Assembly (NCBI GenBank): GCA_964016885.1
Contig: OZ024745.1
Span: 70,246,001 to 70,310,000 of the forward strand
Direction of reading: 5' to 3'
Source of the DNA: Eledone cirrhosa
Taxonomy: Eukaryota
DNA: 64,000 nucleotides
Shown here one piece after another: positions 6,471-7,693 of this stretch (its first letter is position 1; the number at the start of each line of letters is the position of its first letter). A program made the translations under genes and the position numbers. Under the pieces are notes generated by a model. It did not search any database. It was given only the letters and a program-made list of their open reading frames with translations, and was not told the DNA's origin.

Positions 6471-6478
<8 letters not shown>

Positions 6479-7691
6479 CATTATAAAGAAAGAAGAAACA
6501 TTAGATATAAATAAAAAGATATAATATACCTAAATTCCTCGACTACGTAGTTTCGTGGCTATTATGCAAAAACATTACATCATAGAGATGCAGTATTATT
6601 GTGAGGTTTTCTGACTTATCAAGAGGATACCTCATTTACAGTTTCAAAACACGTCCGTAGGACGCGAGATAGAATTCCGAAAGACGGAGGGGGAACTTAT
6701 CACGTGATACAACGGTCGAGAAGTACAGCTAAGCCTCTTACAACCAAGAGAAAAATACCACAAAAGGCGCAGAGGGTATTTATGTCAAGGCCGTAGAAGA
6801 GTTGGCTAGGAGGGCGAAAAGTGTGATTAGTGTAAGCTTACCATCAGTCACTATACTTCAGTGGTTACTCTACCGTATGGAGTTATAAACAATACAAAGA
6901 AATACACAGACACATGCGAATACATACATATACATGCATATACCCACATATATCCCTGAATATGTGTGGTGCCAACCTTAACTGTTGTTGCTCTATGCAT
7001 AATAGGGACAAAATAAGATGAATGGATTAGATTGATTCAATATCAGAGCTATATAATACATTATAAAGAAAGAAGAAACATTAGATATAAATAAAAAAGA
7101 TATAATATACCCAAATTCCTTCATTATCCTCGACTACGTAGTTCCATGGCTATTATGCAAAAAACATTACATCATAGAGATGCAGTATTTTTGTGAGGTT
7201 TGCCGACTTATCAATAGGATACGTCATCTAGAGTTTCAAAACACGTCCGTAGGACGCGAGATAGAATCCCGAAAGGCGGAGGGGGAACTTATCACGTAAT
7301 ACAGCGGTCAAGAAACAGAGCTAAGCCTCTTACAACTGTCGTATTTTGAAACTGTAAATGAGGTATCCCCTTGATAAGTCGGCAAACCTCACAAAAATAC
7401 TGCATCTCTATGATGTAATGTGTTTGCATAATAGCCACGAATCTACGTAGTTGAGGATAATGAAGGAATTTGGGGATATGATATCTTTTTATTTATATCC
7501 AATGTTTCTTCTTTCTTTATAATCTATTATATAGCTCTGATATTGAATCAATCTAATCCATTCATCTTATTTTGTCCCTATTATTCATGGAGCAACAGCG
7601 GTTAAGGTTGGCACCACACAAATTCAGGGATATATGTGTGTATATTCATGTATATGTATGTATTCGCATGTGTCTGTGTATTTCTTTGTAT

Positions 7692-7693
<2 letters not shown>
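6471..7693. mobile_element. Tandem plus inverted ~580-bp non-coding unit (retrozyme-like or non-autonomous PLE)
   Basis: Unit 1 is 6471-7050, a direct partial repeat spans 7051-7336, and an inverted copy at 7344-7693 crosses the unit junction. Each carries a GAAACTACGTAGTC-type HHR 3' half. Confidence 0.85.
6537..6590 (-). ncRNA. Hammerhead-like motif, degenerate core
   Basis: Minus strand CTC-TATGATG...CAC-GAAA-CTACGTAG-TC-GAG: palindromic helix III ACTACGTAGT, GUC triplet, helix I CTC/GAG. The 5' core lacks one nucleotide of CUGAUGA. Confidence 0.45.

Follow-up and report, generated by a model that had tools for sequence, protein, structure and literature searches.

The window, that is, the whole stretch of 64,000 nucleotides of Eledone cirrhosa DNA that was analysed, contains a repeat inserted as two arms between (TA)n tracts (Table 1). 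Read along the minus strand, a partial unit (7336 to 7050) is followed by a full unit (7049 to 6470), and the inverted arm on the plus strand (7340-7694) spans the unit junction, running through u397-580 and then u1-161. This arrangement, a partial and a full minus-strand unit plus a junction-crossing inverted arm, had been described in an earlier note on this DNA, and its coordinates were borne out by self-comparison. The full unit measures 580 nt against 590 nt in the family majority, since the window copy is without 10 nt. The copies are mutually 88-90% identical, and the full unit and the inverted-arm tail have two adjacent variants in common (u32 and u33), of which u33 is private to this locus. 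The hammerhead-like motifs, reported as lying ~590 nt apart, have their cores 592 nt apart (6616-6622 and 7208-7214), and the claim that the unit lacks an ORF likewise stands, with the longest ATG ORF of the family unit reaching 32 and 47 aa on the two strands. The locus is a typical S/T insertion, as defined below, and an old, mostly decayed member of subfamily F1.

Table 1. Features of the two-armed insertion (positions in the window; u, position in the unit)
Feature	Position	Strand	Remarks
Full F1 unit (u1-580), short 3' end S running into (TA)n	6470..7049	-	self-comparison
Upstream 5'-truncated unit (u306-580), pseudo-LTR-like partial tandem	7050..7336	-	self-comparison
5'-truncated unit of the inverted arm (u397-580), facing the minus arm head-to-head across 3 nt	7340..7533	+	self-comparison
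Inverted-arm tail (u1-161), ending 3' at the long end T	7534..7694	+	self-comparison
(TA)n target beside S end	6432..6475		
(TA)n target beside T end	7698..7768		
Predicted type I hammerhead A	6536..6629	-	core TTGATAA 6622-6616; predicted cut between 6541 and 6540
Predicted hammerhead B, GAAA to GGAA, likely inactive	7125..7221	-	core 7214-7208
Predicted hammerhead C, GAAA to GAAT, likely inactive	7364..7459	+	core 7371-7377
Small signal TA[AG]CTC-N6-16-GAG[CT], just 3' of T site	6865..6885	-	candidate RT start signal

The element is adjoined by a near-perfect palindrome (5715-6381, 305-nt arms, 99%), a short two-armed Penelope insertion. It comes from the 3' end of a different, very young family with 1,775 first-look candidates. 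Longer copies of that family contain a PLE-like RT frame and then the start of a YIG-type endonuclease. Elsewhere in the window, LINE-type reverse transcriptase fragments were found at 15434-16708 and 32332-35479; they match Pfam RVT_1, and a PHD finger accompanies one of them.

Based on an alignment of 51 copies, the family hammerhead is predicted to consist of a 7-bp stem I, the core TTGATAA, one unpaired G, a stem II with an insert of ~50 nt, GAAA and a palindromic stem III, with the cut falling after GUC. The features of a type I hammerhead are all present, namely a 3:8 pair (U3:A8), GAAA, a UH cut site and three stems, and both the F1 and the F2 reference units contain the predicted motif. 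The descriptor matched 36 of the 51 aligned copies (35 with TTGATAA), and the other 15 were missed through single mutations. At the window locus, only copy A keeps an intact core; it has a stem I of 5 bp, GAAA, the palindromic stem III and a stem II that bears the ~50-nt insert and is mutated at its base. As GAAA is damaged in copies B and C, decay has been at work here as well as natural variation. TTGATAA itself is a published U3:A8 variant. According to the available part of PMC3088659, covariation from C3-G8 to U3-A8 is natural and active in vitro, and a U3-A8 core is known from a Schistosoma PLE (PMC4209133, also available in part). What had been taken for the catalytic core, CTATGATG, is present in all three copies, but it lies inside the loop-II hairpin, with TTGATAA ~30 nt upstream of it. 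It was rejected as core, since no hammerhead register can be built from it and the sister subfamily F2 does not conserve it.

Conservation between the subfamilies is concentrated in the motif, with 43 of 44 positions identical between F1 and F2 in stems and core, against 408 of 546 elsewhere (p=1.3e-4). The loop-II hairpin is retained between them despite its altered sequence. A single compensatory change was seen in stem I (locus L002), and no stem covariation was found between F1 and F2, whose stems are nearly invariant. The genome search for a C3-G8 version of the motif with the same stem III gave 0 matches. Rfam at E<=1 returned no hammerhead among the 150 of 172 matches listed, and since the motif was missed there, ribozyme repeats of this kind may be undercounted. 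The hammerhead-constrained fold comes close to the free fold in both subfamilies (-22.9 versus -24.0 kcal/mol in F1, -21.9 versus -23.1 kcal/mol in F2). As monomers, the window copies A, B and C fold no better than shuffles (z of -0.9, -1.3 and 0.0); folded as circles, the units reach z of -5.9 and -5.4 on the ribozyme strand, against -1.2 and 0.0 on the opposite strand (12 shuffles).

The genome searched comprises 3.0 Gb in 1,796 contigs. The window unit gave 118 matches from 40 scored candidates, and a 23-mer of the ribozyme 3' half has 7,488 exact matches (0 for the reversed control), mostly in F2, the younger sister subfamily. F1 is small and old, with 108 exact matches of its specific 23-mer and copies that lie ~3.5% from their majority. 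The F2 unit measures 591 nt and is ~76% identical to F1, many of its copies being 97-100% alike. F2 arms reach 4.5 kb, and the family contains head-to-tail tandems with at least two complete motifs. The term multimer, used earlier for the window locus, is overstated there, as it holds 1.5 units plus a 0.6-unit arm and a single complete motif, that of copy A. Protein-coding capacity is lacking throughout: the longest ATG ORF is 32-75 aa across family units, tblastn of the unit against the PLE-A and PLE-B proteins (see below) gave no match, and the ORF of an autonomous PLE, with RT and GIY-YIG endonuclease, is absent from the unit. At four loci (L003, L014, L026 and L104), another repeat, ~900 bp long where both sides were seen, is inserted at the unit junction, with a common TA step at the S site.

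The 5' ends of the copies are scattered, and the 3' ends fall at two sites, S being the unit end and T lying ~165 nt into the next unit. The loci form a non-random sample (drawn from the best matches to the window unit, from the initial 54 Mb of contig C1 and from the best matches to one F2 array); with matches below 82% identity or shorter than 24 nt, insertions touching the locus edge and duplicates of the same arm layout left out, 94 deduplicated two-armed insertions were counted, 72 of them S/T, 6 S/S and none T/T, the other 16 having one unclassified end (eroded or interrupted). Within this sample, S/T pairing accounts for 72 of the 78 classified cases (p=9e-16 versus free pairing). All 87 simple two-armed insertions are head-to-head, and there are 2 further complex ones. 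TA repeats flank both outer ends in 65 of the 72 S/T insertions; as the ends lie inside (TA)n, target-site duplications are unreadable there. Single-armed insertions end at S in 27 cases, at T in 23 and elsewhere in 3. Hammerhead-to-hammerhead phasing, as suggested in the earlier note, does not describe these ends, which correspond to two RT start sites on the 3' side of the predicted cut, at distances of ~80 and 250 nt. Just 3' of T, the signal TA[AG]CTC-N6-16-GAG[CT], a motif defined post hoc, after the cases had been seen, occurs once per unit in F1, F2 and PLE-B; it likewise lies upstream of the PLE-A ORF, with one unrelated match in 128 kb of window sequence. At one locus (L131, C1:36.74 Mb), all four full units have a 3-nt deletion at u164-166, directly at the T site.

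Insertions with a pseudo-LTR, an inverted copy and a tail at one end are described for PLEs in the available parts of PMC8557442 and PMC3846280. In vitro, the Penelope protein of Anolis makes nicks in both strands, extends each of them and begins at two sites inside the RNA, which define the tail (PMC11167929). A literature search that included few subscription papers turned up neither the 590-nt family nor, for retrozymes, the S/T rule.

Autonomous elements with this anatomy are present in the same genome. One of them, PLE-B, has a unit of 3,531 bp with intact 784-aa frames (L126-L128 and L145; C1:437.20 Mb, C2:339.85 Mb, C2:42.85 Mb), whose motifs look RT-like and endonuclease-like. Pfam returned no family for three PLE fragments; by features given in PMC8557442, the clade of these PLEs is presumably Hydra-like. 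In all three two-armed PLE-B loci examined, the ends lie 83 nt apart. As PLE-B has the tail anatomy too, the junction-crossing arm at the window locus, presented earlier as a sign of a circle, is no proof of one: it is what is known as the Penelope tail. PLE-B also occurs as a tandem of five 3,531-bp units, two of which were compared and are 99.97% alike, and the type I descriptor found no hammerhead in it; multimers therefore need no circle made by a ribozyme. Short PLE-B end fragments are found in the window itself (24905-25089, 37878-38066 and 59230-59337), two of them as small inverted pairs. The second element, PLE-A (L062-L091), has an 834-aa frame with an asparagine-rich insert, its copies being 93-99% identical in protein. 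PLEs are very abundant, given that the protein search gave 74,235 first-look candidates. Between the unit and PLE-A or PLE-B, two of many PLE families, no alignable sequence was found. Attachment of the genomic copies to a PLE ORF in every case, which had been named as a sign against a retrozyme, was not observed: no ORF that would mark an autonomous partner is joined to the unit in the first 60 loci or in 14 short-loop variants. PLE-B is a candidate enzyme for in vitro tests.

If the ribozyme cuts its RNA, some copies should begin at the cut. Two patterns demanding that the 5' end coincide with the predicted cut returned 13 matches, all of them true 5' ends and 10 independent. At a control site there were 4 matches, and the one inspected proved to be an internal double change; the genome-wide excess is small (10 versus at most 4, with unmatched denominators). 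Among 85 F1 arms, 6 begin at u509-511 against 0.43 expected if the ends were uniform, one of the six having been found via the test pattern. These 5' ends are moderate evidence for cutting in vivo. Stops at the cut site number only ~10 versus 7,488 intact ribozyme halves, and their rarity in F2 implies a template nearly always continuous across the cut. Such continuity may mean that the template was circular, that it was a multimer left uncut, or that the RT jumped with great precision.

The variants point to a template of one unit. F2 units differ by 0.33-0.36% within one insertion versus 2.64% between loci, and 84-85% of the non-majority variants are common to both arms within an insertion versus 11% between loci. 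On the ribozyme strand, F2 variants present in all units comprise 19 A>G versus 6 T>C (p=1.5e-4), and single-unit variants are free of this skew (7 A>G versus 18 T>C). The skew suggests A-to-I editing of the monomer before amplification. It was not significant among all-unit F2 variants private to one locus (6 versus 5, p=0.21) or in F1 (11 versus 7, p=0.07; private, 1 versus 5). It is pronounced at L129, where 7 of 10 variants in 9 segments are A>G, and at L137 (4 of 5 all-unit variants). A linear multimer copied into both arms should leave shared variants in register; 1 such variant (L218) was counted versus 62 differences in 27,040 sites, after 4 of 5 in-register shared variants had been dropped, the shared base being the family base. 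Twelve F2 variants are present in some but not all units, runs of neighbouring units have one variant in common at L214, L193 and L131, and at L200 three variants are common to both arms out of register and one variant recurs every four units. These patterns indicate that arrays are also remodelled at the DNA level, or that templates are sometimes mixed. L200 is, with L239, part of the largest two-armed F2 insertion seen (C12:14.09 Mb, ~8 kb).

Taken together, the element is very probably non-autonomous, mobilised by Penelope and of retrozyme type. Its template was probably a monomer cut by the ribozyme, and that monomer may well have been a covalent circle. With modest confidence, we explain the window locus as an old insertion of a repeat with a predicted U3:A8 hammerhead, moved in trans by a Penelope-like RT/endonuclease that copied a cut, likely circular monomer. 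Tandem copies would be transcribed, the predicted hammerheads would pair through their palindromic stem III and cut as dimers, and a host ligase would join the monomers. At a break in (TA)n, the Penelope protein would then nick the two strands, S being the start of one cDNA and T that of the other; each would pass the cut site, for up to ~7.5 rounds, and the 5'-truncated cDNAs would be joined head-to-head, often by a microhomology of few bases. A complete retrozyme cycle, in which a cut 590-nt monomer is A-to-I edited and circularised, and a PLE RT dimer twin-primes at sites 165 nt apart and rolls, is a serious possibility that falls short of being probable; if true, the PLE tail and the inverted arm would be the two halves of one twin-primed reaction. 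The retrozyme-like reading of the earlier note is kept in so far as the unit is an ORF-less, hammerhead-bearing repeat moving via RNA, and is given up as regards the identity of the core and the argument for a circle drawn from the junction.

Other explanations were weighed against the same data. Uncut linear read-through transcripts could have served as templates of a non-autonomous Penelope derivative, the hammerhead being mostly a silent passenger and the arrays lengthening and homogenising at the DNA level after insertion. That the RT crosses the cut site in almost all units (~10 stops versus 7,488 halves) agrees with such transcripts, as do the multimers of PLE-B, in which no hammerhead was detected, the in-register variant of L218 and the shared-variant runs in neighbouring units; for the Anolis element in vitro, moreover, unprocessed RNA is the main substrate and the hammerhead is dispensable for insertion (PMC11167929). 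According to the available part of the preprint bioRxiv 10.64898/2026.07.22.740005, 8 of 9 Xenopus retrozyme dimers showed no cleavage. We nevertheless consider uncut templates unlikely. A>G-rich haplotypes are fixed in every unit of both arms at L129 and L137, and a monomer bottleneck after editing is therefore needed; in addition, single-unit variants are without an A>G excess, in-register sharing is 1 versus 62, and both the conserved core (43 of 44) and the 5' ends at the cut site speak against a passenger.

A linear monomer cut by the ribozyme, with the RT jumping from its 5' end to the 3' end either of that monomer or of a different one and no covalent circle formed, appears quite unlikely. 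The jumps would have to be precise and more than 99% efficient in F2, and no cut-site indels were found across 30 multi-unit F2 insertions listed per unit; in other animals, retrozyme monomers have been found as circles (available part of PMC7229834). In favour of jumping, it accounts for homogeneous units, shared edits and occasional stops at the cut site, and equally for haplotype switches between units and for the PLE-B multimers. Finally, a local minisatellite or foldback rearrangement of DNA with a chance hammerhead-like motif might be suspected in a microsatellite-rich region with a palindrome alongside, all the more as Rfam had no hammerhead among the 150 of 172 matches listed. This is very improbable: it is refuted by the dispersed copies (118 matches and 7,488 half-motifs) and by S/T pairing, and neither fixed 3' ends with variable 5' ends nor a strand-biased A>G change fits it.

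As far as the available parts of PMC7229834 and bioRxiv 10.64898/2026.07.22.740005 go, the family resembles metazoan non-LTR retrozymes in that its tandem unit is low in GC, lacks an ORF and has a single predicted type I hammerhead, and also in its stable predicted circular fold, its dispersal as monomers to multimers and the co-occurrence of PLEs. Mobilisation of metazoan retrozymes by PLEs is proposed there (Cervera and de la Pena 2020, PMC7229834; Li, Clavereau and Pollet 2026, preprint), the PLE-driven rolling route being put forward without demonstration. The family bears on the copying of animal retrozymes and on the one-ended tail of Penelope inverted arms. The route should be testable in vitro, because the genomic footprints can be counted (strict S/T pairing, one haplotype across arms and stops where the cut is predicted), a young template exists in thousands of copies, and the genome also has intact PLE ORFs. 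In contrast to the 170-400 nt of the tested invertebrates in the available part of PMC7229834, the unit here has 590 nt, which is inside the 51-972 bp range given in that of the preprint. Further differences are the U3:A8 core, the ~50-nt loop-II insert and the two-armed, S/T-paired insertions, which the available texts on metazoan retrozymes do not describe.

With EN+ PLEs, as portrayed in the available parts of Craig et al. 2021 (PMC8557442) and Arkhipova et al. 2013 (PMC3846280), the family has in common the partial tandem and the head-to-head inverted, 5'-truncated copy, as well as the one-ended tail with two RT start sites of Frangieh et al. 2024 (PMC11167929). The (TA)n target is that of the Hydra and Naiad clades of these elements. 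Unlike them, the unit is without an ORF, its tail has ~165 nt versus 30-40 bp, TA-like microhomology to the target is found at both ends, and the search of this genome revealed no autonomous element that has the unit in common with the family. Regarding the ribozyme, U3-A8 and an unpaired base between position 9 and stem II are shared with Cercyon of Schistosoma (PMC4209133) and natural U3-A8 cores (PMC3088659), in the parts of both available. The short palindromic stem III is like that of minimal PLE hammerheads and suggests cleavage as a dimer, whereas the 7-bp stem I and the large structured loop-II insertion set the motif, whose activity is predicted, apart from them. Judged by its genomic copies, the family differs from known retrozymes in its size, its core, its loop-II insert and the length of its tail, and, having the sequence-level features of a metazoan non-LTR retrozyme when taken as a family, it would work like one.
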